Part shown: positions 336-62,847 of the stretch, in pieces
Numbering within the stretch: the first letter of the stretch is position 1
Layout of the letters: each line of letters opens with the position of its first letter
Made by a program: the position numbers and the translations under genes
Notes under the pieces: generated by a model
What the model was told of the DNA's origin: nothing
Seen by the model: the letters and a program-made list of their open reading frames with translations, nothing else
The model's database searches: none
Source of the DNA: a virus
IMG/VR virus record: IMGVR_UViG_3300046779_001442
Coordinates: 32,001 to 96,000 of that record
DNA length: 64,000 bases
Direction: 5' to 3' (one strand)

Positions 336-337
336 TA

Positions 338-2368: not shown

Positions 2369-2442
2369 TAAAATGTGATATAATAGTACAAAATGTTATA
2401 AAAACGTAATATTGCAAAAAAAGGCTCTATAATTATACTACG

Positions 2443-6362: not shown

Positions 6363-6811
6363 TGGTAGTATGCGAAAAGACAGATTTCGTATTTCCAATG
6401 ACTGCAGAGGTTTTCTATCCTACTGTTGAGCAGGGTGCCTATGGCAATGTAAAGAAAACTTGGATTCATAATAAAACTGTCGCATGCTACTTTGCATCAG
6501 CTGCAGGTGCAGCAAAAGAAGAAGTTATCCCAAATGTAAATATTACAAAAGAGCTAATTTTGGTTGGTAGGGTCAAATCTGACATTAGAGTAAATGCTCA
6601 GCAAGATGGTCAAGCAATAACCAATATTGTTATTAGCAATATCAAGGATACTGTTGGAGCAAGTATTTATATCGAGACCTCTGGTGTGCGTGATGGAAAG
6701 GCAACCATTTTTGAAATTGCATCACAAGAACCTATCGTTGGCCCATTTGGAACAGTTGAATACTACAAGGTTGTATTGCGTAGATCTGAAAACCAGGGGG
6801 TAGATGTTTAA
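6362..6811 (+). CDS. Head-to-tail stopper
   Basis: Synteny, 149 aa beta-rich, QGAYGNVKKTW. Confidence 0.6.
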   Translation: MVVCEKTDFVFPMTAEVFYPTVEQGAYGNVKKTWIHNKTVACYFASAAGAAKEEVIPNVNITKELILVGRVKSDIRVNAQQDGQAITNIVISNIKDTVGASIYIETSGVRDGKATIFEIASQEPIVGPFGTVEYYKVVLRRSENQGVDV

Positions 6812-7482: not shown

Positions 7483-8018
7483 TGTCAATACATTATCCAC
7501 CAGCATTCATTAATGCATATTTAGCAGAAAAAATTCCTGCAGATTTAGGTCCAGAAAGATTTGGGAATGGCTTAATGAAGTTCTTTCCAGCAAGCCCAAC
7601 AGACATAGAGGCACTAACTGAAACATTCCCAGATGCGTCAGCAAATGTCTTTGCAGTGTATGACAGAATGCTAAAAATGAGACGTAGTCCATTTCCACAT
7701 ACTAAGTCAGAACAGCTACTGTATTATTTTTATAAGATGGCAGGAGATCCAGTAGATCTCATAGAGGCCACCCAGGTTGTTCAAGACCTACTAGATAGAG
7801 AAGATGAATCAGCTCAAGAGCTAAATGCTTGGATTAAGGCAAAGCAGGCATCAAATAGTCCAGTAACAGACGATGCAGGAGAACCACTGCCAATGCCATT
7901 TTTTCATAAAATCCGAATATATCAGCTAGAAGAAACAAGGGACCTGATTGATTTTGGCACTGCCAGAACATACGCAGGCAACAAAATAATTATTGATTAC
8001 GACTGGCATAAATCGTAA
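7482..8018 (+). CDS. Tail terminator-like protein
   Basis: Last neck gene before major tail protein. Confidence 0.5.
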   Translation: MSIHYPPAFINAYLAEKIPADLGPERFGNGLMKFFPASPTDIEALTETFPDASANVFAVYDRMLKMRRSPFPHTKSEQLLYYFYKMAGDPVDLIEATQVVQDLLDREDESAQELNAWIKAKQASNSPVTDDAGEPLPMPFFHKIRIYQLEETRDLIDFGTARTYAGNKIIIDYDWHKS

Positions 8019-20500: not shown

Positions 20501-21848
20501 ACAAACCCCAACTGGATCTATGGGATATTACCAAGATGGTAAGGTTGGTGGAGCTTCTGGCGGATTAGCAGTTATGTTAAATTCAGCCACCAACAACGGA
20601 TACTATTTTGAAATCATGGCACTAACTGGAGACACAGTTCTTGGAGAAGAAGATGTTATTCTCAATAACGTAGTTTTTTATAAGATTAAGTCTGACTCTA
20701 GTGGCAATGCTGTTCCAGTTAGACTATGGTCTGGAATTGCAAATATAGTAGTAGATTCTGGAAATTTTGCAGGGCAGTCAAGAACAAACACACAAGAAAA
20801 TCCATCAGTATATGACCTAGCTATAGAGTACGAAGAAGTCGATAAAAGATCTGCAAGAAGATTCTACCTATACATAAATAATAAGTGTGTGGCAATTATT
20901 GATGATACAGACCCTCTACCAGCATATCAAAATATTGCACCATTCATTCGTGGCACATCAAGAGTAATGTTTGAAAACATTTATGCCCTTGCAAAGAAAT
21001 ACTCTGTAGATGCTGCTGGTAGCTTGTCAACACCAATTAATTCAGTATTTGGAGATAGTTCAGTTGATGTATCAGAGTCAATGAGAAAATATGCTTTATC
21101 TGGTGCAGTGCAAAAGACATATTTGTCAGACATTAATGGACAACAGGGACCAGGATACGACATGTATTTTGAAGAGTTCGGTACTATTATGCGTGAGGCA
21201 GCATACTTTAATATTAAGTTTGACAAGGCATATCCAGCACTAAGTGCTAAAATATCTCCAACATTCAATAAGGTTAAGGGATATACAGTTTCTGGCTTTA
21301 TGCCAAATGCATATGGTGCAGAGTTTTTAGTATTTAACCATACCGATAGTGTTATAAGTCTTGATGAGACTACTGGAAACTATCTAAGAATTCAGGGCGT
21401 AACCTTTACTCAAAACTCAGATAGAAAGCTAACTCTAGACGACTATTATAAGTATAATAGCGACTTATCAAATGTTGACCATGTTGTATCAGGAACAAAC
21501 TCACCGTTTAAGGCAGAGAAAGAATTTTTTGATATCAAGGCAAGTCGTGCAACATATGGTACGAATGAGTTTTCTCTTAATGCTAAGTATATTCAGACAG
21601 AAGATGCTGCTCGTGATCTTATGGGTTGGGTGATTTCAAAAACTATTAAGCCTAGAAAATCAGTTGGTATGAATGTGTTTGCTGGATCTGTGCTGCAATT
21701 GGGAGATATTGTTCAGATTTTTTGGACTGATGATGACGGAACAGATCAGCTGTTTGATAGAAACAAGAAGTTTGTGGTGTATAGTATTGACTATACGATT
21801 AGTCCAAATGGGCCAACTTCGACTGTATATGTTAGTGAGGTAATCTAA
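17589..21848 (+). CDS. Large minor tail / baseplate hub protein
   Basis: ~1420 aa; start reassigned to ATG 17589 (SD gaggt, overlap with upstream stop); LQLGDIV hub-like C-terminus. Confidence 0.7.
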   Translation: MFGNKTLLSHLEKSSNVSISSAIFAEWNMNIPQNFAKIGNYRYRPTSSSIYQTILSSYDKYDTGNFYTGATDADITIDGGIDDDDQPLAFTSPKEQTKLLFSLEECFNKFRPRSGINKAKYFADRYFHYSDKDMAKRPRYYVATKGDAFKYWTSDRTEDGIRGVSYPVRVGNFTNYFIDDAAPFIVYSESVPANRIVVKMQTHIGTINKGPFLSPAGTTLADPFYGQENSKTPTKWRIQYLDENDTWVDAAVFLPTDKRIDGTPIVGPDGYVEVYYGAIIPSEYSSIFNYKRSFVSAQMIPLSPDVGSAYLVKSSATDPGRFYIYTSSGYQSFAAKYGWSLSQTEVLDFRNTVDATASSEYFVDPLSGKKNYSKYQHINGIRVVVDQMNTTNSSFDLIEMSPRLVLDFTGMVESCNVTKSMSDLGNAGMPVGQLLASVGSLSMFDYNEVFNENNKTSVISKYLDQIIKFMIYERITDKSGNQYLVPIKFMYSANKPSLSATTRDLSIELRDLTFWFEQSMSPELFMVDVSMSVAISTLLDSIGFSNYKFLRMDGEKDLIIPYFYTSSEQSVMEVLQDIAVSTQSAIFLDEENNLIVMSKDYLLPSSSLPRATDMILSGEKTNLIDANIEDIAVQESKVFNGGTINYQEKYIQRSYGSIKQSSMIDRNKTWIYKPALLWEASGSLNTKSQNGQLTNQSAYSLAAIPLNSTLPATIPSVVNGSIINNIIDFGEGVYFTTRYNGYFFANGEIVRYDAVEYSMTGQAAPVWIQSTQEYSNYFQQLKFGGTMYPTGRVRIYCEPKYEVVNGVTRFKDGAVNKHGRGQFGTPIVAHEAGLSSVWTNSDGSNPTRGCKMSFSELLSFDETTAQTKSKSLSTGAAGVANSTVVSASRSGIIRNSLSGNYKTDAQINQLKITEFGTVQSSALVFNGPNFTTDVKATDHISYIPKNLNRTYSHFGTRMRIIGRAENGTNKLQTPTGSMGYYQDGKVGGASGGLAVMLNSATNNGYYFEIMALTGDTVLGEEDVILNNVVFYKIKSDSSGNAVPVRLWSGIANIVVDSGNFAGQSRTNTQENPSVYDLAIEYEEVDKRSARRFYLYINNKCVAIIDDTDPLPAYQNIAPFIRGTSRVMFENIYALAKKYSVDAAGSLSTPINSVFGDSSVDVSESMRKYALSGAVQKTYLSDINGQQGPGYDMYFEEFGTIMREAAYFNIKFDKAYPALSAKISPTFNKVKGYTVSGFMPNAYGAEFLVFNHTDSVISLDETTGNYLRIQGVTFTQNSDRKLTLDDYYKYNSDLSNVDHVVSGTNSPFKAEKEFFDIKASRATYGTNEFSLNAKYIQTEDAARDLMGWVISKTIKPRKSVGMNVFAGSVLQLGDIVQIFWTDDDGTDQLFDRNKKFVVYSIDYTISPNGPTSTVYVSEVI

Positions 21849-22855
21849 TGGCAGAAAAACCAAAGGCATCACCAAAAGCTTTATTGCCAACACTTAAACC
21901 AGTTACAACTGGCGTACCAAAGTCTTTGCAAAAGCCAGCTCTGACCTTACAGCAACAGTCTGATAGATCTAGAACAGCATCACGAGCTGCATTTCAAGCT
22001 TCTCCAGCAAAGAAAGAAAGAAATAAAGCAACTCAAAGCGTAATAGCTGCAAATAAAAAAGTTGATCAACTAAAAGCTTCTGCTAATGCTCCAGGGCTAA
22101 CTGCTCAGCAAAAATCAGATAGGATGCGTACTCTTGGTAGGGCACAAAATCAACAGTCAAAAGCAAAGGCTAACCTTAACAAAATAACTGGATATAAGAA
22201 ACCAGTAAAAAAGAGTGATCCAGTCAACACCAAGCCAACAAAGCCAAAAACTACAAAACCAAAGACTACAAAACCAAAGACCACAAAACCAAAAACTACT
22301 AAACCACAAACTGGTAACAATTCTACACTGCCACAAACTACGTCCCCAGTTGATGCTACGGAAAATCCTGTAGTTTCTGCTACCCCAGAGTCTCCATCTC
22401 CAGGAGTTACTTCAGAAGCAGAAAGTGTAAAGACCTATAAGCCTGCTACTCCAGATTTGATTCAGTTACAGGAAGACGAATTTCCAGTAGAGATTATTAC
22501 AGACTTGTTGTTTGAGGATATTGGCGGTACAGAAATTTTAAATTTAGCAAGGCATGACCTTGTGAGTGGTATAGATATAAAATATCAGCAAATATCAAAT
22601 CTTTCCAAGATTGAGGCTGTGTATGGTGGAGCAAACTTGGTTGCACTACAAAACACATCTGAACAAGTGTTTAGTAAATATCCACTCAGAAGATATCAAT
22701 TTATACCAACAGTCACAGATGATCCATCTGGACTAAATAGCCATGTCTACCTTGATGCTGCTGGAGACTTGGTGATAGAGCTAATCAACATAGACAACTC
22801 ATACCAAATAGAGGTAGAGTTCCAGGCAGCAGACATTAATGATATAATATATTGA
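21848..22855 (+). CDS. Tail-module protein with basic, Thr/Pro-rich low-complexity N-terminus
   Basis: TKPKT repeats; globular acidic C-terminus. Confidence 0.65.
   Translation: MAEKPKASPKALLPTLKPVTTGVPKSLQKPALTLQQQSDRSRTASRAAFQASPAKKERNKATQSVIAANKKVDQLKASANAPGLTAQQKSDRMRTLGRAQNQQSKAKANLNKITGYKKPVKKSDPVNTKPTKPKTTKPKTTKPKTTKPKTTKPQTGNNSTLPQTTSPVDATENPVVSATPESPSPGVTSEAESVKTYKPATPDLIQLQEDEFPVEIITDLLFEDIGGTEILNLARHDLVSGIDIKYQQISNLSKIEAVYGGANLVALQNTSEQVFSKYPLRRYQFIPTVTDDPSGLNSHVYLDAAGDLVIELINIDNSYQIEVEFQAADINDIIY
22229..22310 (+). repeat. Degenerate 15-nt tandem repeat encoding (TKPKT)n
   Basis: acaaaaccaaagact-like units, about 5 copies. Confidence 0.85.
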
Positions 22856-37875: not shown

Positions 37876-38172
37876 TTGGGTCGTAAGAAGAATGCTGCAC
37901 CAGTAGCTCCTAGTAAATTTACTAGAGAGCATTCAATGCTAGTTAATGGCTTTGAGATAGTTCGTGGTGATATAATTAAAGTTAGTGGAGAATATGGACT
38001 CAAGTTCAAATTCGATGCTGTAGTAACCAACATGGAGACAGGATCTAGTTGGGTAGACTGCTTTGAACTATTCAGAGGGCAAAGCCATAGCTACAGATCG
38101 TTTTCCTTGGACAAGGTCAAAAGAATACCGCAGAAGGGCAAGAGGGCAAAAAAGAATGTCTCATCAGATTGA
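37876..38172 (+). CDS. Hypothetical protein
   Basis: TTG start directly after upstream stop; WVDCFE. Confidence 0.6.
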   Translation: MGRKKNAAPVAPSKFTREHSMLVNGFEIVRGDIIKVSGEYGLKFKFDAVVTNMETGSSWVDCFELFRGQSHSYRSFSLDKVKRIPQKGKRAKKNVSSD

Positions 38173-38896
38173 ATATCTTGACTCACCAACAAGGGTCTGG
38201 ATTATTGACGACTTCTTGAGTACAGAGCTTGCAACACAGCTTTCTGACGAATTCTATAAGTATGAAGATGAAAGATGGCTAACAAGAAACAACTCAGAGT
38301 TTGAGGAAAAGCTTCTTTCTACACATTGGGACTGGTACCCTAAATCTTTTTATAAAACATTTTTTGATTTGACATCTGTTAATTTTACAAAAGAGTTAGA
38401 AGACCTAACTGGTATTGATGGGCTTATCGCAGACTATGGCCTACATGCTGGTGGAATGCATCTACACGCAAGCAACGGCAGACTTAATCTACACCAGGAT
38501 GCAAAGGTGCATCCGAAACTTGACCTAGTAAGAAAGCTAAACTTAATCGTTTATCTAAATAAAAACTGGGAAGATAAATGGGGTGGAGAGCTAGAGTTCT
38601 GGAGTGATAAAGACGGAGAGCCTAATGAGCTAGAGTTCTATGTCGAACCAAAGTTTAATCGTGCAGTACTGTTTGAAACAGATAGAGATTTTTGGCATGG
38701 GCTTCCAGAGATGATTGCTGCACCTAATGGCGAAAACAGACAAAGCATCGCTATTTTTTATTACATTAAATCTGACAAAAGTATAGACATGCCAACAAGA
38801 GCAAAGTTTGCACTCACTGATGAGCAGAAAATGAATCCAGAGCTTGTCGCTAAGAGTGAAGAAAGAATGAGAACGGCCTTTAAATATGGAAGATAA
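38156..38896 (+). CDS. 2OG-Fe(II) oxygenase, prolyl-hydroxylase-like
   Basis: LHQD, YLNKNWEDKWGGEL, PKFNRAVLF, WHG, RQS; start reassigned to 38156. Confidence 0.85.
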   Translation: MSHQIEYLDSPTRVWIIDDFLSTELATQLSDEFYKYEDERWLTRNNSEFEEKLLSTHWDWYPKSFYKTFFDLTSVNFTKELEDLTGIDGLIADYGLHAGGMHLHASNGRLNLHQDAKVHPKLDLVRKLNLIVYLNKNWEDKWGGELEFWSDKDGEPNELEFYVEPKFNRAVLFETDRDFWHGLPEMIAAPNGENRQSIAIFYYIKSDKSIDMPTRAKFALTDEQKMNPELVAKSEERMRTAFKYGR

Positions 38897-50533: not shown

Positions 50534-50606
50534 TGCCCTATAGCTCAGCTGGCAGAGCGTCCGACTGTTAATCGGCAGGTCCCTGGTTCGATCCCAGGTG
50601 GGGCAG
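50534..50606 (+). tRNA. tRNA-Asn(GTT)
   Basis: Cloverleaf, loop ctGTTaa. Confidence 0.92.
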
Positions 50607-50610
50607 CAAA

Positions 50611-50790
50611 CACATTAACGACGGTTGATGTGGAGTATGACCGAATAATTCCCAGAGTCAAATGGGGGGAATAAGGTACTATCGGATCTTAGCGGATCGT
50701 CTTAGCGGACAAACGGTAGGTGTGCTCAAAGCGGTACTTGACGAGCCGTATTGACTAGGCACTGGTGGTAAAATGCAATCCACCTACTCA
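50611..50790 (+). ncRNA. Candidate structured ncRNA 1
   Basis: Multi-branch pairing found by hand, twin TTAGCG-loop hairpins, no ORF. Confidence 0.6.
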
Positions 50791-50794
50791 CTTT

Positions 50795-50865
50795 GCGAAT
50801 GTTGCATAATGGTAGTGCCTCTGCCTTCCAAGCAGAAGGTGAGAGTTCGATTCTCTCTATTCGCT
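50795..50865 (+). tRNA. tRNA-Gly(TCC)
   Basis: Cloverleaf, loop ctTCCaa. Confidence 0.92.
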
Positions 50866-50866
50866 C

Positions 50867-51035
50867 TATAGGCTAATCACCTATACGTGTACAAGTGTAC
50901 GTAAAAATTCAACACTTGAGAATGTCCAGGCATTGGTTTAATCTGGCGTGTAGGCACCTCACGATATAGGTTCGGAGCTAGTCACTCGTCTTAGGAAACG
51001 ACTCAGGGATATAGATCTGATTAATCTGATATCCC
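50867..51035 (+). ncRNA. Candidate structured ncRNA 2
   Basis: Several 7-11 bp helices, no ORF. Confidence 0.5.
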
Positions 51036-51039
51036 ACTT

Positions 51040-51113
51040 GGTCTCATAGTTCAGTTGGTTAGAACGCCACCCTGTCACGGTGGAGGTCAGGGGTTCAAGT
51101 CCCCTTGGGATCG
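51040..51113 (+). tRNA. tRNA-Asp(GTC)
   Basis: Cloverleaf, loop ctGTCac. Confidence 0.92.
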
Positions 51114-51120
51114 CTCAGAA

Positions 51121-51279
51121 GCATAAGTCTGAACAACTTATGTGGAGATTGTTATACCGAAACCTGCACTGTGGACGCATCATACGAAGGGGTTCAGCCC
51201 GATGGAGATTGCTCTGCTAACCCACTAGGTATAACAGCCAATGGCAAACTTCCTTAACCAAAAGGTGAGCACGATTGGC
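51121..51279 (+). ncRNA. Candidate structured ncRNA 3
   Basis: 10-bp closing helix with nested stems, no ORF. Confidence 0.55.
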
Positions 51280-51283
51280 AAAT

Positions 51284-51357
51284 GCTTCCTTAGCTCAGTT
51301 GGCCAGAGCAATCGCCTTGTAAGCGATAGGTCGTCAGTTCGAACCTGACAGGGAGCT
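51284..51357 (+). tRNA. tRNA-Thr(TGT)
   Basis: Cloverleaf, loop ctTGTaa. Confidence 0.92.
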
Positions 51358-51361
51358 CGAT

Positions 51362-51433
51362 GGCCCCATCGTCTATCGGTTAGGACTCCAGATTTTCAAT
51401 CTGGCAAGACGGGTTCGATTCCCGTTGGGGCTA
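51362..51433 (+). tRNA. tRNA-Glu(TTC)
   Basis: Cloverleaf, loop ttTTCaa. Confidence 0.92.
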
Positions 51434-51465
51434 CTATAGCATAAAAAGTATGCTATACTATAACT

Positions 51466-51561
51466 ATGGAGCTAACTATGAAGTATTCAAACCAGCAATC
51501 GCATGTGCGATTTAGTCTGGCGTACTCTTGGCATTTAGCCAGTCTCCAGCCGAGTATCTAA
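51466..51561 (+). CDS. Putative 31-aa leader peptide MELTMKYSNQQSHVRFSLAYSWHLASLQPSI
   Basis: ATG 6 nt after TG-C-TATACT (51451-51459); second in-frame ATG at 51478. Confidence 0.45.
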   Translation: MELTMKYSNQQSHVRFSLAYSWHLASLQPSI

Positions 51562-51648
51562 TCTAACTCGCTTAAACAAATAGATTATCTAATAAAAATC
51601 CAAACAATCACAATTTAATACAATACCAAACAGTTAGTTCCATAACAT

Positions 51649-51722
51649 ATCGTATTGGTGTAGTGGTAGCACAACAGCTTCCAAACCTGTTGGCGTGGGT
51701 TCGATTCCTACATACTTTGCCA
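51649..51722 (+). tRNA. tRNA-Trp(CCA), aberrant acceptor stem
   Basis: D and T arms intact, CCA encoded; mismatches at 2:71, 3:70 and 31:39. Confidence 0.7.
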
Positions 51723-51795
51723 CCTGATATAGCTCAATTGGTAGAGCGTCTGTTTGAAGCACAGAAGGTTCTTGGTTCGATTCCAAGTGTTAGGA
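51723..51795 (+). tRNA. tRNA-Phe(GAA)
   Basis: Cloverleaf, loop ttGAAgc. Confidence 0.88.
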
Positions 51796-51796
51796 C

Positions 51797-51825
51797 TTGA
51801 CAACTAAATATAGAAAAGATATAAT
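51797..51825 (+). promoter_or_regulatory. Consensus promoter for the distal tRNA block
   Basis: TTGACA-17-TATAAT. Confidence 0.85.
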
Positions 51826-51831
51826 ATACAT

Positions 51832-51909
51832 TGCGGAGTAGAGCAGTTCGGACAGCTCAGCAGCCTCATAAGCTGAAGGTCGTGGGTTCAAATCCCACCT
51901 CCGCAACCA
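51832..51909 (+). tRNA. tRNA-Met(CAT), initiator-like
   Basis: GAGC/GCTC D stem (A11-U24), TTCAAAT T loop, CCA encoded. Confidence 0.88.
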
Positions 51910-51910
51910 A

Positions 51911-51982
51911 CTAGATATAGTGAAGCGGTATCACGCCTGTTTTGGGAACAGGAGATCGCAGGTTCAATCCCTGCTATCTAGA
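51911..51982 (+). tRNA. tRNA-Pro(TGG)
   Basis: Cloverleaf, loop ttTGGga. Confidence 0.9.
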
Positions 51983-51986
51983 CGAT

Positions 51987-52062
51987 AGATGTATGGCCAA
52001 GTGGTTAAGGCACTGCTCTGATAAGGCAGGGATCGCTGGTTCAAATCCAGCTACATCTACCA
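51987..52062 (+). tRNA. tRNA-Ile(GAT)
   Basis: Cloverleaf, loop ctGATaa, CCA encoded. Confidence 0.9.
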
Positions 52063-52063
52063 T

Positions 52064-52135
52064 ACCAATATAGCTCAGCGGAAGAGCAATGGTCTACGAA
52101 GCCATGAGTCAAAGGTTCGAATCCTTTTATTGGTA
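52064..52135 (+). tRNA. tRNA-Arg(ACG)
   Basis: Cloverleaf, loop ctACGaa. Confidence 0.9.
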
Positions 52136-52138
52136 CGA

Positions 52139-52221
52139 GGAAGTGCGTCGCAGTTGGAGAGGCGAGGCGGTCTGTAAAACCGTTGGGTGCACCTGAGTCA
52201 GTTCGAATCTGACCACTTCCA
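52139..52221 (+). tRNA. tRNA-Tyr(GTA)
   Basis: Loop ctGTAaa, long variable arm. Confidence 0.88.
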
Positions 52222-52223
52222 CT

Positions 52224-52297
52224 GTGGTACTAGTTCAATGGTAGAACGCTTGGTTGTGGTCCAAGGAATGAGGGTTCAATTCCCTCGTATCACCCCA
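52224..52297 (+). tRNA. tRNA-His(GTG)
   Basis: Loop ttGTGgt, C73, CCA encoded, T at -1. Confidence 0.9.
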
Positions 52298-52370
52298 GGG
52301 TCTTTAGCTCAATTGGGAGAGCGTCTGGTTTGCATCCAGAAGGCTAGGAGTTCGATTCTCCTAAGATCCA
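52298..52370 (+). tRNA. tRNA-Ala(TGC)
   Basis: G3:U70, loop ttTGCat. Confidence 0.92.
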
Positions 52371-52374
52371 CAGC

Positions 52375-52445
52375 AGTCCATTAGCTCAATGGTAGAGCAG
52401 CTGGCTTACATCCAGTAGACAGGAGTTCGATTCTCTTATGGACTA
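52375..52445 (+). tRNA. tRNA-Val(TAC)
   Basis: Cloverleaf, loop ctTACat. Confidence 0.9.
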
Positions 52446-52446
52446 C

Positions 52447-52519
52447 GCTTCTCTAGCCCAACGGTAGAGGCAGTAGTCTTAGAAGCTACAAAGTGTGAGT
52501 TCAAATCTCACGGGAAGCA
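52447..52519 (+). tRNA. tRNA-Leu(TAG), short variable loop
   Basis: Loop ctTAGaa, A73. Confidence 0.88.
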
Positions 52520-52520
52520 C

Positions 52521-52610
52521 GGAAGGACAATCCGATTGGCGACGGAACCTGTCTTGAAAACAGTTGAGGTGTTAAAGCCCTTGGGAGTTCGACTCTCCCT
52601 CCTTCCGCCA
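52521..52610 (+). tRNA. tRNA-Ser(TGA)
   Basis: Loop ctTGAaa, long variable arm, G73, CCA encoded. Confidence 0.9.
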
Positions 52611-52611
52611 A

Positions 52612-52684
52612 GCTTCTCTAGTCCAACGGTAGAGACATCAGATTCAAACCCTGATCAGTATAGGTTCAAATCCTATGGGAAGCA
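52612..52684 (+). tRNA. tRNA-Leu(CAA), short variable loop
   Basis: Loop ttCAAac, A73. Confidence 0.85.
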
Positions 52685-52688
52685 CAAA

Positions 52689-52761
52689 GCCCTTATAGCC
52701 CAGTGGTAGAGGTAAGCGACTTAAAATCGTTTCAGCGATGGTTCGAATCCATCTGGGGGCA
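52689..52761 (+). tRNA. tRNA-Leu(TAA), short variable loop
   Basis: Loop ctTAAaa, A73. Confidence 0.88.
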
Positions 52762-52762
52762 C

Positions 52763-52849
52763 GGAAGCATGGCAGAGTGGTCCATTGCAGCGGTTTGCTA
52801 AACCGTGGGTGTAACAGCCCCGTAGGTTCGAATCCTACTGTTTCCGCCA
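52763..52849 (+). tRNA. tRNA-Ser(GCT)
   Basis: Loop ttGCTaa, long variable arm, CCA encoded. Confidence 0.9.
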
Positions 52850-52850
52850 T

Positions 52851-52922
52851 GCCCCTATAGCTCAGCGGTAGAGCTGCGGACTTTTAATCCGTAGGCCCTT
52901 GGTTCGATCCCAAGTGGGGGCA
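52851..52922 (+). tRNA. tRNA-Lys(TTT)
   Basis: Cloverleaf, loop ctTTTaa. Confidence 0.92.
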
Positions 52923-52926
52923 CTAT

Positions 52927-52997
52927 TCTCCCTTCGTCCAACGGCAGGACACTAGGTTTTGGCCCTAGGAATCGTGGTTCGAATCCACGGGGGAGAG
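52927..52997 (+). tRNA. tRNA-Gln(TTG)
   Basis: U1-A72, loop ttTTGgc. Confidence 0.9.
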
Positions 52998-53042
52998 CAA
53001 GATAAAGCGATTAATGCTATAATAGGTTGGAAAGGTTTGGAT

Positions 53043-53723
53043 ATGGAAAAGCCTCCTATAATAACGCACGAGATTAATAATTTTGATATTTGGTATAACA
53101 CCAAAGATCCATTTTTCACAGAGCTGTCTCAGAAATCAAACATACCATTTAATTGGCTTGCATACAAAACAGTGCTTTCTGGAGAGAACAAAGACTCAGT
53201 GATAAAGCCAATTAATAGATATGTTGAGAGACTGGTACCGCCACCAGATCTGATAAGTATAAATAATAATATAGTAACACTTCGTCAACGTAACCATGCT
53301 GAGTTTTTTCTATTAGAAAAAGAAGATGGATCATTTTATAACGTTGATAGACCATGGCAAAGACAATACTATAATTCTGCACTAGACTTTGATGCAGATA
53401 ACTGCTATCCTGGAACATTTAAATTCTATGTACCATGGTTTATTGATGAATCAGTTGTTGCATATTTTCATCCACCAAAAGAAGATACCCCATTCCACAC
53501 ATATTCAAGCATAGCAAACTATGGCAGGGTTCCAGATGATGCAAGGTTTGTAGAGCCACACTTCGTTCCCTTTAGATTTAAGAGGGTGGGGCCACACATG
53601 ATTGATGATAAGTTTGGTAAAATACCAATAGGATCTGCAATGTATGACATAATGTTCTACGCAGATGATATAATAATAGAAAGAGTAAAGGAATTCTATG
53701 AAAAACAAAGCAAACATAATTAG
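53043..53723 (+). CDS. Divergent paralog of the next two genes (DUF6065-like)
   Basis: FKFYVPWF and GKIPIGSAMYDI resemble paralog motifs; start moved out of tRNA-Gln; upstream TG-C-TATAAT. Confidence 0.5.
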   Translation: MEKPPIITHEINNFDIWYNTKDPFFTELSQKSNIPFNWLAYKTVLSGENKDSVIKPINRYVERLVPPPDLISINNNIVTLRQRNHAEFFLLEKEDGSFYNVDRPWQRQYYNSALDFDADNCYPGTFKFYVPWFIDESVVAYFHPPKEDTPFHTYSSIANYGRVPDDARFVEPHFVPFRFKRVGPHMIDDKFGKIPIGSAMYDIMFYADDIIIERVKEFYEKQSKHN

Positions 53724-54429
53724 CTTTTATCCTCTGAATGAAGAGGTACGAAATTTTGTCCCAGAGCCAGTACCAGCTTCACGGAACTTACCACAGTGGT
53801 ACAAGGACACACCTGGTTCAATTGATAACGGTGAAATGATGGCACAAATGGGTCAGCCAGCTAGTACAGTAAAGAAGTGCATGCCCATCTTTGATGCAAT
53901 TACTGCAGGATATATTTTGAGAATGCCTATGGATGTCTATGTAGATGCGACTGGCGAAAAACTAACCTATCAAATACCACTAGCTATGTCAAAGTTCAAG
54001 GGTGATCTTTTTGCTACACATGAACGTAGACAATATGAGAAGTATCCATATGGAGACAAGTGGCACCAAGACCTACTTAGAATCATGCCTATGTGGATCA
54101 TTAAGACACCAAAGGGCTTTAGCACACTGATCACTCAGCCATTTCATGGAGATTCATCACCGCTATATGCAGTACATGGTCTTGTTGATACTGATGGGTT
54201 TGCTACTGATGGGCACTTTTCTTTCTGGGTTGAAAAAGGTTTCAAGGGCACAATCCCACAGGGCACACCAATTGCACAGGTAATTCCTTTCAGACGTGAT
54301 GATTGGCAGATGGAAATTCTTACGGCAGAAGATACGCAAAAGGATATTCTTCCACAAAGACTAACTCTGCGTAGTACATTTAATAATGGATATAAGAATA
54401 AGTTTAGAAGCCGTAAAGAATATAAATAA
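53698..54429 (+). CDS. DUF6065-like protein (possible dUTPase-like fold)
   Basis: P.WYK, KKCMPIFDAITAGY, TPKGFSTL, G.VDTD, IPQGTPIAQVIPFRR. Confidence 0.65.
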   Translation: MKNKANIISFYPLNEEVRNFVPEPVPASRNLPQWYKDTPGSIDNGEMMAQMGQPASTVKKCMPIFDAITAGYILRMPMDVYVDATGEKLTYQIPLAMSKFKGDLFATHERRQYEKYPYGDKWHQDLLRIMPMWIIKTPKGFSTLITQPFHGDSSPLYAVHGLVDTDGFATDGHFSFWVEKGFKGTIPQGTPIAQVIPFRRDDWQMEILTAEDTQKDILPQRLTLRSTFNNGYKNKFRSRKEYK

Positions 54430-55202
54430 TGTCTGAACCGCTAAAGATTACTTTTATACCTGCTCACGCAGAGCCGTATAGGCTAAAAGAGATGAGCCCA
54501 CCAGAACCAGCTGTAAGGCATATTCCTGAGTGGTACAGGTCTTTGGCAAGACATGACAAGTCTAATAGTGATATAACTCTTAGGCCAGAGAATCATATTG
54601 GCACTGATGGTGCACAGGTATCTACAAAAATGTGCATGCCTTATTTTGATGCAATAACTGCAGGGTATCAGTACTGTTTAGAGGATGATCTATATGTTGA
54701 TATGGATGAGAATGGTCATCCTATTATGCATTGGAAGGGTAATGTTATGTTGGTTGATACACGACCAATCTTTGACGTTCCGCTACCAGACAACTGCCAC
54801 CCAATACATTTTGGCTGGAGAATGAATTGGTTCTATGAGACTCCTCCAGGATACTCTGTTCTAATTACACACCCAATGAATAGGCACGATCTTCCATTCT
54901 ATACTCTTTCTGGAATAGTTGATGCTGACATTTGGGGACTACCCGTATTTACCGCATTCTTTTTAAAGCGTAACTTCCGTGGTGTAATTCCAAAGGGCAC
55001 ACCAATTTTTCAGATGATACCATTCAAGCGTGACAACTGGGAGTTAGATGTTGATAGCTCACAGGAAACGATTGATGAACACTGGTTCCGTGGAGAAAAT
55101 AGAAGATCTATGCTATATGGATACTATAAGAAGACAGCTTGGCGTAAAAAGATATTTGGTATTTTTGGCAAAAAAGAAAAAGAAGTTTCCCATGATGAAT
55201 AG
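54429..55202 (+). CDS. DUF6065-like protein, paralog
   Basis: KMCMPYFDAITAGY, TPPGYSVL, IPKGTPIFQMIPFKR. Confidence 0.65.
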   Translation: MSEPLKITFIPAHAEPYRLKEMSPPEPAVRHIPEWYRSLARHDKSNSDITLRPENHIGTDGAQVSTKMCMPYFDAITAGYQYCLEDDLYVDMDENGHPIMHWKGNVMLVDTRPIFDVPLPDNCHPIHFGWRMNWFYETPPGYSVLITHPMNRHDLPFYTLSGIVDADIWGLPVFTAFFLKRNFRGVIPKGTPIFQMIPFKRDNWELDVDSSQETIDEHWFRGENRRSMLYGYYKKTAWRKKIFGIFGKKEKEVSHDE

Positions 55203-56061
55203 CACAAACCTTACAATAGTTGTAGTGTCTTATAAAGATAAGAATCTTTTTGATTTTGTAAATAATCTAGATAAGAACACTATTTCTGATCATTCAATTG
55301 AGGTATTTGAGCAGCACCCAGTAGACCACTATAAAGATTTCTGGGAGATACCTAAATGCTCTTATGAACATAAAATATGGGATGATATCGCTGGACTAAC
55401 CGTCAAAAAAATAAGTAAGATTGAACCAAGGTTAGATTCGTCAACACATATATGCATTATAACTCCAGACTCTGTTCTCTCTTATGGATGGGACAAAGAG
55501 TTGCTTGAGTTCATGAATAGCAATGACAATGTAGTAATTTCTGGTGGTGGGTTAATATCTGTAACACATAAGGATTTGTTCTCGCTTGAGGCAAAGTATG
55601 TCCCATCAAAGCATTTTTCAAAAACAAATTTTATAAATAAAAATTTCATATTTGCAAAATCAGAAGCATTTAATAATATTGTTATGCCTAATTTCTTAAA
55701 ATACTACGGAGAAGACGAATATTGGACTCTTGCCTTTATGTCTAATGGGTATGAAATATTCTCATGCCCAGATAATATATATGTAGATAAGATGTATAGG
55801 TCTATAGAAAATACATATCATACATTTTCATCTGAGCATAACTATAATGTAGTTGTAGATATTTTAAATAAAATTGACAACGATAGGTATGGAATCACTG
55901 ATGAAGCAATTGATAGATTTGCTAATTTTCACAAGATTGACACTGCAAAAATACTGAAGCTGCCATATCAAACAAATGATGTTTTATATGATCCATATGA
56001 CTTAAAAATGCATGATGTGGATGCAAGAAGATTTATAGCAGGGACTAAGGCGGTATACTAA
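55192..56061 (+). CDS. GT-A glycosyltransferase-like protein, degenerate
   Basis: IVVVSYKD, PDS.L..GWD, YYGEDE; lacks the DSH motif. Confidence 0.55.
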   Translation: MMNSTNLTIVVVSYKDKNLFDFVNNLDKNTISDHSIEVFEQHPVDHYKDFWEIPKCSYEHKIWDDIAGLTVKKISKIEPRLDSSTHICIITPDSVLSYGWDKELLEFMNSNDNVVISGGGLISVTHKDLFSLEAKYVPSKHFSKTNFINKNFIFAKSEAFNNIVMPNFLKYYGEDEYWTLAFMSNGYEIFSCPDNIYVDKMYRSIENTYHTFSSEHNYNVVVDILNKIDNDRYGITDEAIDRFANFHKIDTAKILKLPYQTNDVLYDPYDLKMHDVDARRFIAGTKAVY

Positions 56062-56062
56062 G

Positions 56063-56674
56063 ATGGAGGAAAAAATGCATAGAATAGAAATTGTAAGTAA
56101 CTTCTTAGAAGAAGATGATGCTAAGCTTTATGTAAAAGAAGCAGATCATCCATCAGCCATAGAGCCATTTCCAGAATACTATAAGGAAAGATTTGGTGGC
56201 ACAGCTCTTCAGTATAATGAGAACACCAGATATCTTAATAAAAAGTACGGAAGAAAGGCTGCTGAGTATGTAAAAAAGCTTTATGGCTTTAAGCGTCCAG
56301 TATATGTATACAAGGTGTTTATGAATCATACTACAGAGATAGGATATACTGGTGGACTGCATACAGACTCTGTAAATCCAGAACCTTGGATCGAATGGAG
56401 TGTTGTTGCCTACCCAGAGAATAATTTTGAGGGAGGAAAGCTACACTTTCCAAATCAAGAATTTGTGTATGATCCAGTGCCACTAGAAGCAGTTTTTTTC
56501 CCAAGTGCAGGACACGAATATATTCATGGAATATCAGAGATGACTGCTGGAGAAAGATTTTCAATAGTTATTTGTCTGACAAGTCTTCCATGGCATGCAG
56601 ATCAGGACATGCTGGAGCCAGAAGATGATATGGAATGGATTCCAAACATTTATAATTTGAAAGAAGATAACTAA
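56063..56674 (+). CDS. 2OG-Fe(II) prolyl-4-hydroxylase-like oxygenase
   Basis: LHTD, NFEGGKLHF, FFPS...YIHG, GERFS. Confidence 0.85.
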   Translation: MEEKMHRIEIVSNFLEEDDAKLYVKEADHPSAIEPFPEYYKERFGGTALQYNENTRYLNKKYGRKAAEYVKKLYGFKRPVYVYKVFMNHTTEIGYTGGLHTDSVNPEPWIEWSVVAYPENNFEGGKLHFPNQEFVYDPVPLEAVFFPSAGHEYIHGISEMTAGERFSIVICLTSLPWHADQDMLEPEDDMEWIPNIYNLKEDN

Positions 56675-57636
56675 TGTTTATAAATAAAGATAAAACAATT
56701 TTTATGACTGTTCCAGCATACAATGATCCATCTCTTATTAGGACTATAGAGAGTGCCATAGACAATGCACTTTTTCCAGAAAGAGTATTCTTTTGTATTG
56801 GTATGCAATATGACGAAGATAAAATGCCAGATATTTCTAAATACTTGGATAACCCTAATTTCAATTTTATTTTTTATGATGTGAAAGAAAGGCCAGGGGT
56901 TTATTGGATTAGACGTGAAATGGCTGAGCAACACCAGGGCCAAGATTACTTCTTGATGATTGACTCTCACATGTTATTTTCTAAATACTGGGATGCAAAA
57001 CTAATAAATGACTATGAAGATCTTAGAAGATTGCATGGTGACAGAACCATCATATCTAGACCAACCATGGATGGTTTGGGAGAAGCTATTACAAGCGGTT
57101 TGATTAATGATAAATCGCACTGGATCGTTGACTGGAATAATCAAAAAGATAGTATTGAGCGTACGATATTACCTTGGACATCACAGTTTCCTTGGGAAGG
57201 TGAGAGATATCAGTATACCCTATACTCATGCAGTCACTTTTTTTTCACAAACAAAGACTATCTTTCTGATGTAGGGTTTCATAAAACAATAAGGTCATAT
57301 TCCGAGGAATATACTATTGCAATAAGTAGCTTCTTATCTGGATGGGATTACTATATGCTTCCAGAGTATGTACATATAGGACATGACGATAGGGCAACAG
57401 CTCAGGCAATTTATGGTAAAGATAAGCATACCTTGGGTAGCGATGGTAAGAGATATCAGGCCTTGTTTGAGACACCAGAAGAAAAACTGGAGATATCAAA
57501 GTTTGTTTTGCTAGACAATTCTAAAATGTTTAAGGTTAAAAACCAGAGAAGAAACATAGAAGAATTCTATCAAATAGCTGGAAAAGAACTTTCCGATGCT
57601 AGAGATACCTTTATAGCAATGCTAAATTTAAATTAA
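56674..57636 (+). CDS. GT60/Gnt1-like GlcNAc transferase
   Basis: IFMTVPAYND, YFLMIDSHMLFSKYWD, HFFF, SEE. Confidence 0.75.
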   Translation: MFINKDKTIFMTVPAYNDPSLIRTIESAIDNALFPERVFFCIGMQYDEDKMPDISKYLDNPNFNFIFYDVKERPGVYWIRREMAEQHQGQDYFLMIDSHMLFSKYWDAKLINDYEDLRRLHGDRTIISRPTMDGLGEAITSGLINDKSHWIVDWNNQKDSIERTILPWTSQFPWEGERYQYTLYSCSHFFFTNKDYLSDVGFHKTIRSYSEEYTIAISSFLSGWDYYMLPEYVHIGHDDRATAQAIYGKDKHTLGSDGKRYQALFETPEEKLEISKFVLLDNSKMFKVKNQRRNIEEFYQIAGKELSDARDTFIAMLNLN

Positions 57637-58542
57637 TTTGCATGTTACTGGATCATACCCTATAAAGCTAATATAGTCTTCAATAGATCTTTTAGTTAGT
57701 GCACCGTTCTTTGGGTGGTATATCTTTTCTACAAATATTGACTTGAAATATTCGTGGTCTTGCTCTTCTTTTTTCCCCCAAAGACTATTCCATCTTGGAT
57801 CCTTATACCTAGAGTGCTTAACATATGAGTCTTTATCTGCATGCTCATAGTCAAAACCGCAGAGATATGATCCTGAAGGGCCTACTACATTGTATCCACC
57901 AGTATATGCCCTAAGCATCATCATAGGCTGTTCATATTTAAATAATATGTTATCTGCTTGTGGAACATCACGTAAAAATTGTGTCTCACCAAATAAATGT
58001 CCAGCACATATAAATTTTTCTAGAGTTTGTATTGGTTGCTTGACTACCTGCCTGCCCATGATTGGTCCGCCATATATTTTGAACCACTCTTCATCGGCTT
58101 CTGCTGTCCACAAACACCCCTTAAAGTCTTCATCCCAGTCTGTAAATATTGTTGGTATGTATCCACCAATTACACTTTTACCAAATTGGCGATTAGCATC
58201 TTCTAGCTCATTAATAAAGTGTAAGTCCCAGTTTGGTGCAAATTTTGTGTGGGAGTCAACCTGTAAAAAATATCTCTCATCCCTAACTAACGTCATGGCT
58301 ATATCGCCACGTATTTTGGTAAGTGATAGAGGAGCTGTCTCTGCGTCAATCCAAATAAACCTAACCTCTGGTCCAAGGTTATTTATTTCTTTAATCATCC
58401 ATCTATCTTCTTCATACCCCTGAAAGACACAGCCAAAAACCAGCCCATCCTTATTTGATGCAGAGTTATATGCAGATAGGATTGTATTAATTACAAACGG
58501 ATCTCTCCATGCAGATATCTGAACTATTATCTTATTTTTCAC
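57628..58542 (-). CDS. GT60/Gnt1-like GlcNAc transferase (only credible minus-strand gene)
   Basis: IIVQISAWRD, YFLQVDSHTKFAPNWD, RAYTGGY. Confidence 0.8.
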   Translation of the reverse strand: MKNKIIVQISAWRDPFVINTILSAYNSASNKDGLVFGCVFQGYEEDRWMIKEINNLGPEVRFIWIDAETAPLSLTKIRGDIAMTLVRDERYFLQVDSHTKFAPNWDLHFINELEDANRQFGKSVIGGYIPTIFTDWDEDFKGCLWTAEADEEWFKIYGGPIMGRQVVKQPIQTLEKFICAGHLFGETQFLRDVPQADNILFKYEQPMMMLRAYTGGYNVVGPSGSYLCGFDYEHADKDSYVKHSRYKDPRWNSLWGKKEEQDHEYFKSIFVEKIYHPKNGALTKRSIEDYISFIGYDPVTCKLI

Positions 58543-60430: not shown

Positions 60431-60666
60431 TGACAGAAGAGACAGTAAAAGAGTGGGTTCTAACTGCCAATGATCGCTGTGATAGTTGTGGTGCTCAGGC
60501 ATATGTACAGGTTACTGGAGTAACTGGATCTTTGCTCTTCTGCAGCCATCACTATAATAAGATTATGGATAATGCAGTAGGATATGACAAGATGATGAAG
60601 TTTGCGTATGAGTTTATTGATGAGCGTGAACGTCTACAAGAGAATCGAACAAAAGGTGAAGACTAA
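60430..60666 (+). CDS. Small zinc-binding protein
   Basis: DRCDSCGAQAYV...FCSHH. Confidence 0.7.
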   Translation: MTEETVKEWVLTANDRCDSCGAQAYVQVTGVTGSLLFCSHHYNKIMDNAVGYDKMMKFAYEFIDERERLQENRTKGED

Positions 60667-61660
60667 AAGAATTTTACTAACAGGTGGTGCTGGTTTTGTT
60701 GGAAGCCATGTGCTAAAGCGTATTCTTGATACCACTGACTGGGAAGTTGTTTTGCTAAAAACATTTCAGCATCATGGATGGCAGGACAGAATAGTTTGGG
60801 CAACTGATAGCAATGATGTAAAACTAAACAGAATTAAGCTAATCACATGCGACCTATCTGCACCAATTTCACCAATCACATCGAAAGAGATTGGGCATAT
60901 TGATTATGTAATTAATCTTGCAAGTGAAAGCCATGTTGATAGAAGTATTCAGTCACCCACCCCCTTTATTGTCAACAATGTTCAAGTTATTTGCCATATG
61001 CTTGACTGGGCTCGTGAGGCAAAGCCAGAAAAATTTGTGCATGTTTCTACTGACGAAGTGTTTGGTCCGTACCAAGATAGAAACTTTGTTGAGTGGGACA
61101 CACACCTACCTAGTAACCCATATAGTGCATCTAAAGCAGCACAAGAGGATATTATTTTTGCATATTGGAGAACCTATAGCATTCCAGTAGCAATTGTGAA
61201 TATCATGAATATTGTAGGCGAATGTCAAAACGTAGAGAAATTTACACCAATGGCAATTAAAAAAATTGTCAACGGTGAGACTCTAGACATCCACACTTAT
61301 GATGGCGACAAGATCGGAAGAAGATACTGGCTATATGCTGGAAATAAGGCATCAGCACTACTTCATACACTTGATCAGCCTTTTAGGCTGCCATCAGAGA
61401 CAAATCGTCCACTTAGATTTAATATTGCTGGAGATGCAGAATACTCTAATCTAGAGTGGGCACAGAAGATTGCAGATATTATTGGTAAGCCATTAAACTA
61501 CAGGCTTGTTGATTCTTCTATATCAAGGCCTGGATATGATTCAAGTTATGGGCTAGATAATAGCAAGATTCTCGATTCTGGATGGAAACCGCCATATAGT
61601 TTAGACGAGGCATTAGAAAAAATTGTTAATTGGTATTTGGAGCATCCAGAATGGTTATAA
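60656..61660 (+). CDS. rmlB: NDP-glucose 4,6-dehydratase (RmlB-like)
   Basis: GGAGFVG, ESHVDRS, STDEVFG, YSASK. Confidence 0.88.
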   Translation: MKTKRILLTGGAGFVGSHVLKRILDTTDWEVVLLKTFQHHGWQDRIVWATDSNDVKLNRIKLITCDLSAPISPITSKEIGHIDYVINLASESHVDRSIQSPTPFIVNNVQVICHMLDWAREAKPEKFVHVSTDEVFGPYQDRNFVEWDTHLPSNPYSASKAAQEDIIFAYWRTYSIPVAIVNIMNIVGECQNVEKFTPMAIKKIVNGETLDIHTYDGDKIGRRYWLYAGNKASALLHTLDQPFRLPSETNRPLRFNIAGDAEYSNLEWAQKIADIIGKPLNYRLVDSSISRPGYDSSYGLDNSKILDSGWKPPYSLDEALEKIVNWYLEHPEWL

Positions 61661-62847
61661 GAAATAAATGTCGTGCATGCGACAGCCCTAAACTATTTTT
61701 AGCTATTGACCTTGGCATACAGCCATTAGCTGGTGGATTTGTAAAAGAAAAAGAGCCATCATATCTGTATCCAAACAAAATGATGGTTTGCAGTGATTGT
61801 GGACTGGGTCAGTTATCAGTTGATATCAAGCCAAGCGAATTGTACAAGAACTATAACTGGAGAACATCAACAAGTAAGTCCTATCTAAATTATATTTATG
61901 AGTTTGCTGATAAACATATTATTCCTAGGATTAACCCAGGTGAATGGGTCTTGGAAATTGCAAGCAACGATGGATACTTACTCAAATATTTGCAATCAAA
62001 TGGAATAGATGTCCTTGGCGTAGATCCTGCAGAAAATATCTCTAGGTACGCTATTTGTGATGGTGTTCCAGTAATCACAGACTTTTTTGGAACCAAGGTA
62101 GCAGAAGATGTAGTCAGGCTAAAGGGTAAACCTAAGTGGATTATTGCTAACAATGTTATGGCACACACACCAGACATTCAAGATTTTATGGCAGGCATAT
62201 CAATGCTATGTGATAGAGATACGATTGTTACTGTGGAAAATCCGACCATAATGAACATCATTGACCATGACCACTTTGATGTGATCTTCCATGAACATTA
62301 CTCATATTTGTCTGCACACGCTGTTGCAAAGCTTGCAAATAAGATGGGCCTATCTCTATTCAACGTTCAGTCAGTGCCTCCGCAAGGTGGTTCCAATAGG
62401 TATTGGATCAAGCAGGGTGGGGAGCCAACTGAGGGAGTTAGGGTAGCAATCAGGGAAGAGCTGCAGTATGGTCTTTTAGATAGAAACAAATGGTCTGAGA
62501 CACAAGATAGAATTCGCCAATCAGCAAATAGTTTTAATGGCAGGGTTGAATCTATCTGGCAATCTGGTGGAGTTGTATGTGGTGTTGGTGCATCTGCAAA
62601 GTCAACAGTGGTTCTTAATTTTGCTGGCGTACAGTCAAAAAGAATTTCAGCAATTGCTGATGATGTAAAAGAGAAGCAGGGACACTATGTCCCTGGACCC
62701 AACATTCCAATCATAAGTATGGATGAAATGCTAAAAATGAATCCAACTGATATAATAGTTTTTGCTTGGAACATTCGAGAAGAGCTAGAAAATAAGCTAA
62801 GAAATTTAGGATACACTGGAAAAGTCTGGGTATGGAACGGAGAATAA
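61651..62847 (+). CDS. NDP-hexose C-methyltransferase
   Basis: CRAC...CSDC zinc site, EIASNDG, HEHYSY, GASAK, AWN. Confidence 0.85.
   Translation: MVIRNKCRACDSPKLFLAIDLGIQPLAGGFVKEKEPSYLYPNKMMVCSDCGLGQLSVDIKPSELYKNYNWRTSTSKSYLNYIYEFADKHIIPRINPGEWVLEIASNDGYLLKYLQSNGIDVLGVDPAENISRYAICDGVPVITDFFGTKVAEDVVRLKGKPKWIIANNVMAHTPDIQDFMAGISMLCDRDTIVTVENPTIMNIIDHDHFDVIFHEHYSYLSAHAVAKLANKMGLSLFNVQSVPPQGGSNRYWIKQGGEPTEGVRVAIREELQYGLLDRNKWSETQDRIRQSANSFNGRVESIWQSGGVVCGVGASAKSTVVLNFAGVQSKRISAIADDVKEKQGHYVPGPNIPIISMDEMLKMNPTDIIVFAWNIREELENKLRNLGYTGKVWVWNGE

Follow-up and report, generated by a model that had tools for sequence, protein, structure and literature searches.

The stretch of DNA considered here, referred to as the window, comprises 64,000 nucleotides (bases 32001-96000) of the 110,900-bp IMG/VR record IMGVR_UViG_3300046779_001442, a viral genome with a CheckV completeness of 100%. 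At 55192-58542 the window carries four open reading frames (ORFs) in which glycosyltransferases (GTs) are combined with an oxygenase, at the positions given for them in an earlier note on this DNA: a divergent GT-A glycosyltransferase of 289 aa, termed here the core GT (55192-56061, + strand), a prolyl 4-hydroxylase (P4H)-like Fe(II)/2-oxoglutarate (2OG) oxygenase of 203 aa, OX1 (56063-56674, +), a GT60-like transferase of 320 aa (56674-57636, +), and a second, convergent GT60-like transferase of 304 aa (57628-58542, -). The first three are tightly joined, with a spacer of 1 nt between core GT and OX1 (TAAGATG) and an overlap of 1 nt between the OX1 stop and the start of the GT60-like gene (TAATG), and the two convergent GT genes share 9 nt at their 3' ends (57636 and 57628). 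To this extent the coupled run described in the earlier note stands, but the run begins further upstream, at about 53043, with three DUF6065-like genes (53043-55202) that overlap one another and the core GT, the last of them by 11 nt. The first of these, 'a' (53043..53723, +), is a remote third copy with syntenic orthologues in related phages, matching nothing in Pfam or NCBIfam; its probable start is the ATG at 53043, and its longest ORF begins at a TTG (52959) inside tRNA-Gln (52927-52998), at the end of an array of 22 tRNA genes (50534-52998). The other two, 'b' (53698..54429, +; phrog_7084, 2.5e-45, and a weak match to PF19541) and 'c' (54429..55202, +; a strong match to phrog_7084 and a weak one to DUF6065), are paralogues of about 31% identity. 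NCBIfam had no useful match for any protein of the cassette, and a scan for promoters and terminators was uninformative, fewer sites being found than in shuffled sequence. The best reading of this cassette, to which we would give an even chance, is hydroxylation of a protein followed by its O-glycosylation.

The two enzyme classes proposed in the earlier note, a P4H-like oxygenase and transferases of the GT60/PF11397 type, are borne out. OX1 alone gives no match in Pfam, and many of its orthologues carry PF13640; all 22 homologues compared share the residues H100-x-D102, H155, and R165, so that the iron triad and the 2OG-binding basic residue, expected some 10 positions beyond the distal His (HxD...H...R), are intact. 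A profile of the 22 sequences, when searched against the PDB, matches human prolyl 3-hydroxylase 1 (P3H1; 7.6e-10) and then the P4H of Bacillus anthracis (0.011), and prolyl hydroxylases are the nearest solved structures for the oxygenases in these searches, which returned no PhyA or PHD2 chain at E <= 1. OX1 also matches phrog_61, a family of 2OG oxygenases. Its top PHROG match is phrog_274, labeled 'DNA endonuclease V', a label at odds with a 2OG oxygenase and apparently an annotation error in PHROGs. As to the transferases, both score well above the cut-off of 21 bits for PF11397 ('GlcNAc'), with 51.7 bits (1.2e-13) for 56674-57636 and 77.3 bits (2e-21) for 57628-58542, and both contain the motifs quoted for them in the earlier note, AYND and AWRD along with IDSH..F...WD and VDSH..F...WD. 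There are four matches to PF11397 in the whole genome, and DSH..F...WD (as IDSH or VDSH) is present in all four of these clear paralogues. The transferase that follows OX1 belongs to a clade of oxygenase-associated sequences, and the convergent one is a fast-evolving paralogue, placed in a separate clade of seven rows with another gene of the genome (L007:5763-6893; end branch 0.99) and having no syntenic orthologue at this site in the relatives. A PDB sequence search with the GT60-like profile found nothing. The characterized GT60 enzymes are polypeptide GlcNAc-transferases, acting on hydroxyproline (Hyp) of Skp1 or on Thr of mucin-like peptides, the acceptor peptide of the Trypanosoma cruzi enzyme being KPPTTTTTTTTKPP (PMC3769586; PMC9472816).

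The core GT presents a different case. The earlier note had taken this ORF, which does not have the DSH motif, for a decayed, non-catalytic paralogue of its neighbors, a view that sits poorly with its membership in a family of at least 49 proteins (identity of at least 37%) with 36 invariant columns, and by its constant presence in the cassette (76 of the 80 cassette loci described below). Pfam has no match for it, although precomputed annotation assigns PF11397 to a few orthologues, and BLASTP finds no significant similarity to the clear GTs, so that its tie to them rests on fold and profile evidence. Its AlphaFold model (pLDDT 85.5) has a GT-A fold, and the 28 top structural matches (VIA) are all polypeptide GalNAc-transferases, with Z scores of 19.7-17.5 and about 245 of 253 residues aligned, compared to Z scores of 16-17 for generic GT2 enzymes and 15.3 for the GT domain of LH3; the top match in Foldseek is also a polypeptide GalNAc-transferase, ppGalNAc-T2 (1e-9). 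In sequence, DSH gives way to (S/T)PD, an invariant Asp taking the place of the His, and the DxH of the GT60 signature DSH..F...WD is therefore not found, while WD is kept, as are the acid pair of GE(D/N)EY and another conserved His downstream; D93, W100-D101, E174/E176, and H216 are invariant in the family. This pattern of conservation argues for a working enzyme rather than a dead subunit, and we predict that the protein is the core transferase of the cassette.

The cassette itself is a conserved unit. A search of IMG/VR with a profile of 'b' and 'c' returned 147 stretches, and 80 loci were kept for counts of gene order. Of the 80, 72 have the genes for DUF-b, DUF-c, the divergent GT, OX1, and a second oxygenase, OX2, in this order, and in the remaining eight the matches end before an oxygenase, mostly at the end of a contig. 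A canonical GT60-like gene lies within 5 kb in only eight of the 80. In the closest relatives, three genes separate OX1 from the GT60 gene, in the order second PF13640 oxygenase, 294-aa protein, and carbamoyltransferase, and other relatives have GT8 genes after OX1. By comparison with these arrangements, the window has lost OX2, the 294-aa gene, and the carbamoyltransferase, which brought OX1 up against the GT60 gene, and the abutment seen here is thus derived. The carbamoyltransferase of the relatives is of the NodU/CmcH type (L010:4557-5975), and the 294-aa protein (L010:3692-4576) has no family match; neither is present in the window. In another relative, a DUF6065-like pseudogene with two in-frame stops (G005:C1:13182-13715) is found beside a GT60-like gene, with the core GT gone, which resembles decay of the cassette. 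Among some 186,000 genomes of prokaryote species, the DUF6065-like profile had one match only (L188, JBIPOM010000247.1), an 8.6-kb contig of a metagenome-assembled genome (MAG) from Lake Mendota, labeled Flavobacterium and probably a mis-binned phage contig.

Irrespective of the derived junction in the window, multiple examples point to a functional coupling of oxygenases with GT60-like enzymes, as the earlier note had proposed. One example is a second pair in the same genome, a PF13640 oxygenase overlapping a PF11397 transferase (L007:9332-10934). Another example is provided by 80 viral loci with GT60-like genes, in which both oxygenase-then-GT and GT-then-oxygenase orders occur, two further loci (L035 and L038) having a divergently oriented oxygenase about 0.6-1.4 kb upstream of the GT60-like gene. 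All oxygenase-linked arrangements fall into a single clade of 26 rows (support of 96 in the Shimodaira-Hasegawa-like approximate likelihood ratio test, SH-aLRT), and a clade of 43 rows consists of solitary GT60-like genes with no adjoining oxygenase. A third example is the fusion of the two activities. When 1.84 billion representative proteins were searched with a profile, at least 4462 GT60-like clusters were returned, and among the best 148, which were examined, 12 possess a C-terminal P4H-like domain (13 if P0150, detected by Pfam only, is included), one of them being a minimal GT60-oxygenase fusion of 528 aa and PF13640 being confirmed by Pfam in three; 55 of the 148 exceed 600 aa and have two to five GT60-like domains. 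Two domains fused in one polypeptide are classic evidence of activities that work together, and on these comparisons the oxygenase and GT60 enzymes are judged to be functionally linked. Giant proteins among the metagenomic representatives (P0147-P0231) are of 900-2461 aa with two to five tandem GT60-like domains, and P0148 adds a peroxiredoxin (AhpC/TSA) domain. As to further oxygenases, a third one in the genome is found near a GT8 gene (GT8 at L007:12882-13694), and one more is encoded in the window away from the island (38063..38896, +; PF13640, 5.9e-17); the genome encodes at least five P4H-like oxygenases in total. A PF13640 oxygenase is also found at L009:8139-8666, likewise away from the island.

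What, then, is modified? Hydroxylation followed by glycosylation is also the logic of known DNA hypermodification systems, and an oxygenase making 5-hydroxymethyl-pyrimidine for the GTs to glycosylate, as in T-even phages, base J, and the phage 5mYOX-GT systems, would be one explanation of the cassette; phage DNA GT-A enzymes do exist (bioRxiv 10.1101/2023.12.21.572611), the partners in the cassette have a dUTPase fold (see below), and oxygenases of the OX2 type give weak, sub-threshold matches to Tet_JBP (24 bits and 13 bits, against a cut-off of 34.9). The genome, complete as it is, encodes none of the enzymes on which the known routes depend: there is no match anywhere in it to PF00145 (C5-cytosine methylase) or PF00303 (ThyA-like hydroxymethylase), ThyX is encoded, and the best match to PF12851 (Tet_JBP) is of 13.3 bits, leaving DNA glycosylation by known routes unsupported. 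Every oxygenase scores higher as PF13640, the GTs match PF11397 whereas JGT is outside all CAZy families (PMC9472816), the described phage DNA GT-A enzymes accompany C5-MT and 5mYOX, or ThyS, and all the enzymes of the cassette are acidic. Modification of DNA thus appears very improbable, and the preference of the earlier note for protein O-glycosylation over DNA modification is kept. Another line of evidence comes from a low-GC (about 30%), phage-like contig (L098, IMGVR_UViG_3300042691_020305), in which a 1048-aa ORF joins domains of the HPAT (hydroxyproline O-arabinosyltransferase) family, of protein O-fucosyltransferases (O-FucT), and of the GT60-like type, and has as its neighbors another GT60-like gene, a hydroxylysine GT of the PLOD type, and a gene for a canonical DUF6065 protein (254-3400 and 5872-7951). 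The DUF6065 protein of this contig is only distant kin of the copies in the window, since the profile built on the latter missed it.

Of all the partners, the DUF6065-like proteins show the most rigid linkage to the GT and the oxygenases. The model of 'b' is of moderate quality (AF2; pLDDT 69), and in a wide VIA search dUTPases and dCTP deaminases fill the first 21 rows (Z 9.3-5.2), unrelated folds beginning at Z 4.3, which indicates a dUTPase/dCTP-deaminase-like beta-barrel. The segments AGY, G(L/I)VDxD, and PI(A/F)Q.IPF are conserved in 'b' and 'c', and these resemble dUTPase motifs 1, 3, and 4. Of the five motifs of dUTPases, the Asp of motif 1, PRSS, and the P-loop-like motif at the C-terminus have no counterpart in these proteins. 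A PDB sequence search with the DUF6065-like profile had no match, to a solved dUTPase or otherwise. We think that these proteins probably bind the nucleotide part of a sugar donor or product, or act as a scaffold. Their fold prompts one further explanation, in which they would bind a UDP- or dTDP-sugar, a nucleoside metabolite, or a tRNA uridine, with the oxygenases and the GT modifying the bound molecule. In its favor, along with the fold (Z 9.3) and the rigid linkage, residues like those of dUTPase motifs 3 and 4 are kept and the ribose-excluding Tyr is lost, and the cassette comes after the array of 22 tRNAs; the latter position, however, reflects synteny within one phage group and does not amount to independent evidence. 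Motifs 2 and 5 are missing, as is the Asp of motif 1, there is no sequence-level match to a solved dUTPase, the oxygenase and GT families indicate protein, and the canonical DUF6065 gene of the contig described above is found beside protein glycosyltransferases of the HPAT, O-FucT, and PLOD-GT types. On balance a nucleotide, nucleotide-sugar, or RNA substrate seems rather unlikely. A bolder version, in which the dUTPase-fold proteins would hold a substrate containing uridine or thymidine (a nucleic-acid base, a tRNA uridine, or a metabolite of the nucleoside kind) for hydroxylation and glycosylation by enzymes drawn from families that modify proteins, would describe a new kind of machine, and we regard it as improbable.

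If the acceptor is a protein, a virion protein is the most likely one, and two candidates, no more than that, can be named. The first is a 335-aa protein of the tail-tip module (21848..22855, +; pI 9.5), encoded after a 1430-aa minor tail protein and containing a disordered arm rich in Lys, Pro, and Thr with (TKPKT)5, the repeat to which the earlier note had pointed; its orthologues carry hypervariable Pro/Thr/Lys arms. The second is a collagen-like protein encoded in a block of fiber genes before the window (genome positions 15764-16468; L008:15764-16468), with two G-X-Y runs (nine and seven triplets) having Pro and Lys in Y positions, a natural candidate, judging by its sequence, for oxygenases of the P4H or lysyl hydroxylase (LH) type. 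Linkers rich in Lys and Pro are found in two other proteins, and the capsid and tail-tube proteins do not have the Ser/Thr-rich C-terminal tail of the mycobacteriophage type. Membership in the PF13640/P4H family is equally compatible with hydroxylation of Pro and of Lys, and at the level of family assignment Pro hydroxylation, Lys hydroxylation, and direct glycosylation of Thr look alike.

The GTs and oxygenases have pI values of 4.8-5.8 and no membrane segment, and, soluble and acidic as they are, should act in the cytoplasm of the infected cell. They would there have access to host proteins as well, and one may propose that they modify a translation factor, a ribosomal protein, or an envelope polymer of the host, resulting in takeover or in a block to superinfection. 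Hydroxylases of the PHD and Tpa1 types act on translation factors and ribosomal proteins. One fused relative is labeled 'Rps23 Pro-64 dihydroxylase Tpa1-like' by JGI, TarP, a phage-encoded teichoic-acid GT, is among the fold matches of the core GT (E 1.1e-7), and no phage acceptor co-varies with the cassette. The matches to polypeptide GalNAc-transferases rank above both TarP and GT2, the cassette is not found in the prokaryote genomes searched except on the short MAG contig mentioned above, and the variability in GT and sugar-tailoring genes of the island is more typical of decoration of a surface or a virion than of a fixed host target. A host-directed role is therefore considered unlikely.

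The wider genome is that of a tailed phage, encoding a portal, a protease, a capsid protein, a 2364-aa tape measure, and the 1430-aa minor tail protein, along with DnaB, a DNA polymerase, a class I RNR, and ThyX, lysins (CHAP and M23-LysM), and WhiB. WhiB, along with the WhiB genes that adjoin related GT60-like genes in other loci, points to an actinobacterial host. DNA and protein searches of cultured-phage records detected no close relative, the sole matches being weak GT similarities in Xanthomonas and Stenotrophomonas jumbo phages. At 54001-58000 the GC content is 0.36, versus about 0.40 across most of the window, in keeping with an island that is mobile or turns over fast, and the content of GT and sugar-tailoring genes in the island differs greatly among close relatives. 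Two such tailoring genes follow in the window, for a predicted NDP-sugar 4,6-dehydratase/epimerase (60602..61660, +; PF16363, 4e-43, and PF01370, 2e-41) and a predicted NDP-hexose C-methyltransferase (61630..62847, +; PF08421, PF08484, and PF13489).

For protein hydroxylation followed by O-glycosylation, the reading that we favor, the following scheme can be proposed. The region would belong to a variable island for glycosylation in a lytic-type siphophage of about 111 kb, infecting freshwater Actinobacteria, and its soluble acidic enzymes would act in the infected cytoplasm. The P4H-like oxygenases would use O2 and 2-oxoglutarate to hydroxylate Pro or Lys side chains of a protein acceptor, and GT-A enzymes of the GT27/GT60 lineage, the core GT with the accessory GT60-like enzymes and GT8, would then attach and extend an O-linked glycan. 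The donors would be tailored by the 4,6-dehydratase and the C-methyltransferase, and in the relatives by the carbamoyltransferase too, and the two or three DUF6065-like proteins, always encoded before the GT, would hold the nucleotide part of the donor or product or serve as a scaffold. The enzyme classes, the intact catalytic residues, the conserved arrangement of the genes, and the fusions that join the two activities are established by the comparisons above, and what we infer is that the acceptor is a protein, in which order the steps proceed, and which sugar is used.

A number of observations weigh against such a scheme. Closely packed genes are the rule in phages and by themselves count for little, the fused GT60-oxygenase proteins come from metagenomic representatives, and many phage PF13640 oxygenases are uncharacterized, the family as such not fixing the substrate. 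The strictly conserved partners have a dUTPase fold, otherwise known from nucleotide enzymes, and this could indicate a substrate that is a nucleotide or a nucleic acid. A comparison of five complete relatives shows no clean co-variation between the cassette and the Pro/Thr/Lys arm of the tail-tip protein: one (G004) has the cassette and no arm, and another (G005) has a (TP)n arm with only the DUF pseudogene and no core GT, and with such mismatches no specific acceptor is established.

Overall, the cassette is common in lake actinophages, with 147 viral stretches containing a DUF6065-like gene and 237 containing GT60-like genes, and many of the metagenomic GT60-like clusters are multi-domain giants fused to hydroxylases. 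The protein chemistry in question is known from eukaryotes (amoebae, and collagen) and from giant viruses, and none has so far been shown in a bacteriophage. If the scheme is correct, bacteriophages carry an O2-dependent pathway of protein hydroxylation and O-glycosylation, located in a hypervariable island, that could set surface traits of the virion such as adsorption, stability, and recognition. The outcome is a defined, testable set of enzymes with candidate acceptor peptides, and a function-less Pfam family, DUF6065, is now tied to glycosylation. Our literature searches found no paper on DUF6065, no description of a P4H/GT60 system or of DUF6065 in phages, and no link between GT60 and phage biology, the sole mention of PF11397 being in connection with a brown-alga genome.

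Among the known systems, the phage 5mYOX/TET clusters with GTs and the base J pathway (JBP and JGT) share with the cassette the hydroxylate-then-glycosylate logic and the GT-A fold, but they need C5-MT with a TET/JBP oxygenase, or a ThyA-like hydroxymethylase, none of which is found in the phage genome. Much closer in its enzymes is the Skp1 pathway of Dictyostelium and Toxoplasma (PhyA, a P4H; Gnt1, a GT60; and a GT8 among the extension GTs), which likewise combines a P4H-type oxygenase with a soluble GT60 in the cytoplasm, depends on O2 and 2OG, and employs GT8 for extension, GT8 being also encoded in this genome and in the relatives. The differences are, however, substantial: the phage oxygenase has no specific affinity to PhyA or PHD, its best PDB matches being P3H1 and a bacterial P4H, the core GT does not have DxH, and the dUTPase-fold partners, the carbamoyltransferase, and the C-methyl-deoxysugar genes have no counterpart in the Skp1 pathway. 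Skp1, a eukaryotic protein, is not known as an acceptor in phages or bacteria. With no PhyA-specific similarity in the PDB searches either, the phage system is probably not a member of that pathway. The T. cruzi and Dictyostelium enzymes OGNT and Gnt2 belong to the same Pfam family, and the Thr-rich mucin acceptor with flanking Lys and Pro (KPPTTTTTTTTKPP) closely resembles the (TKPKT)n arm of the phage (PMC3769586), but these are Golgi membrane proteins that act with no prior hydroxylation, as opposed to the soluble, oxygenase-linked phage enzymes. The mimivirus encodes a collagen hydroxylase and GTs (L230 and R699; PMC9546862, PMC5802723), and these, like LH3 (PLOD3) of animals, first hydroxylate a residue and next add a sugar to the hydroxyl so made, a hydroxylase being physically fused to a GT-A domain, as in the metagenomic GT60-P4H fusions. 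The GT domain of LH3 is among the fold matches of the core GT, and the phage also has a collagen-like G-X-Y protein; the GT there is nevertheless of the PLOD-GT type versus PF11397/GT27-like here, and the phage genes are separate and the host bacterial. Virion glycosylation in mycobacteriophages is not known to involve an oxygenase step, a GT60-like enzyme, or a partner with a dUTPase fold. Mycobacteriophages are reported to O-glycosylate their capsid and tail proteins with GTs and sugar-modifying genes of their own (Freeman et al. 2023, cited as ref. 80 in PMC12582341), and it is with these phages that the system described here shares a host phylum, the Actinobacteria, and a similar likely purpose.

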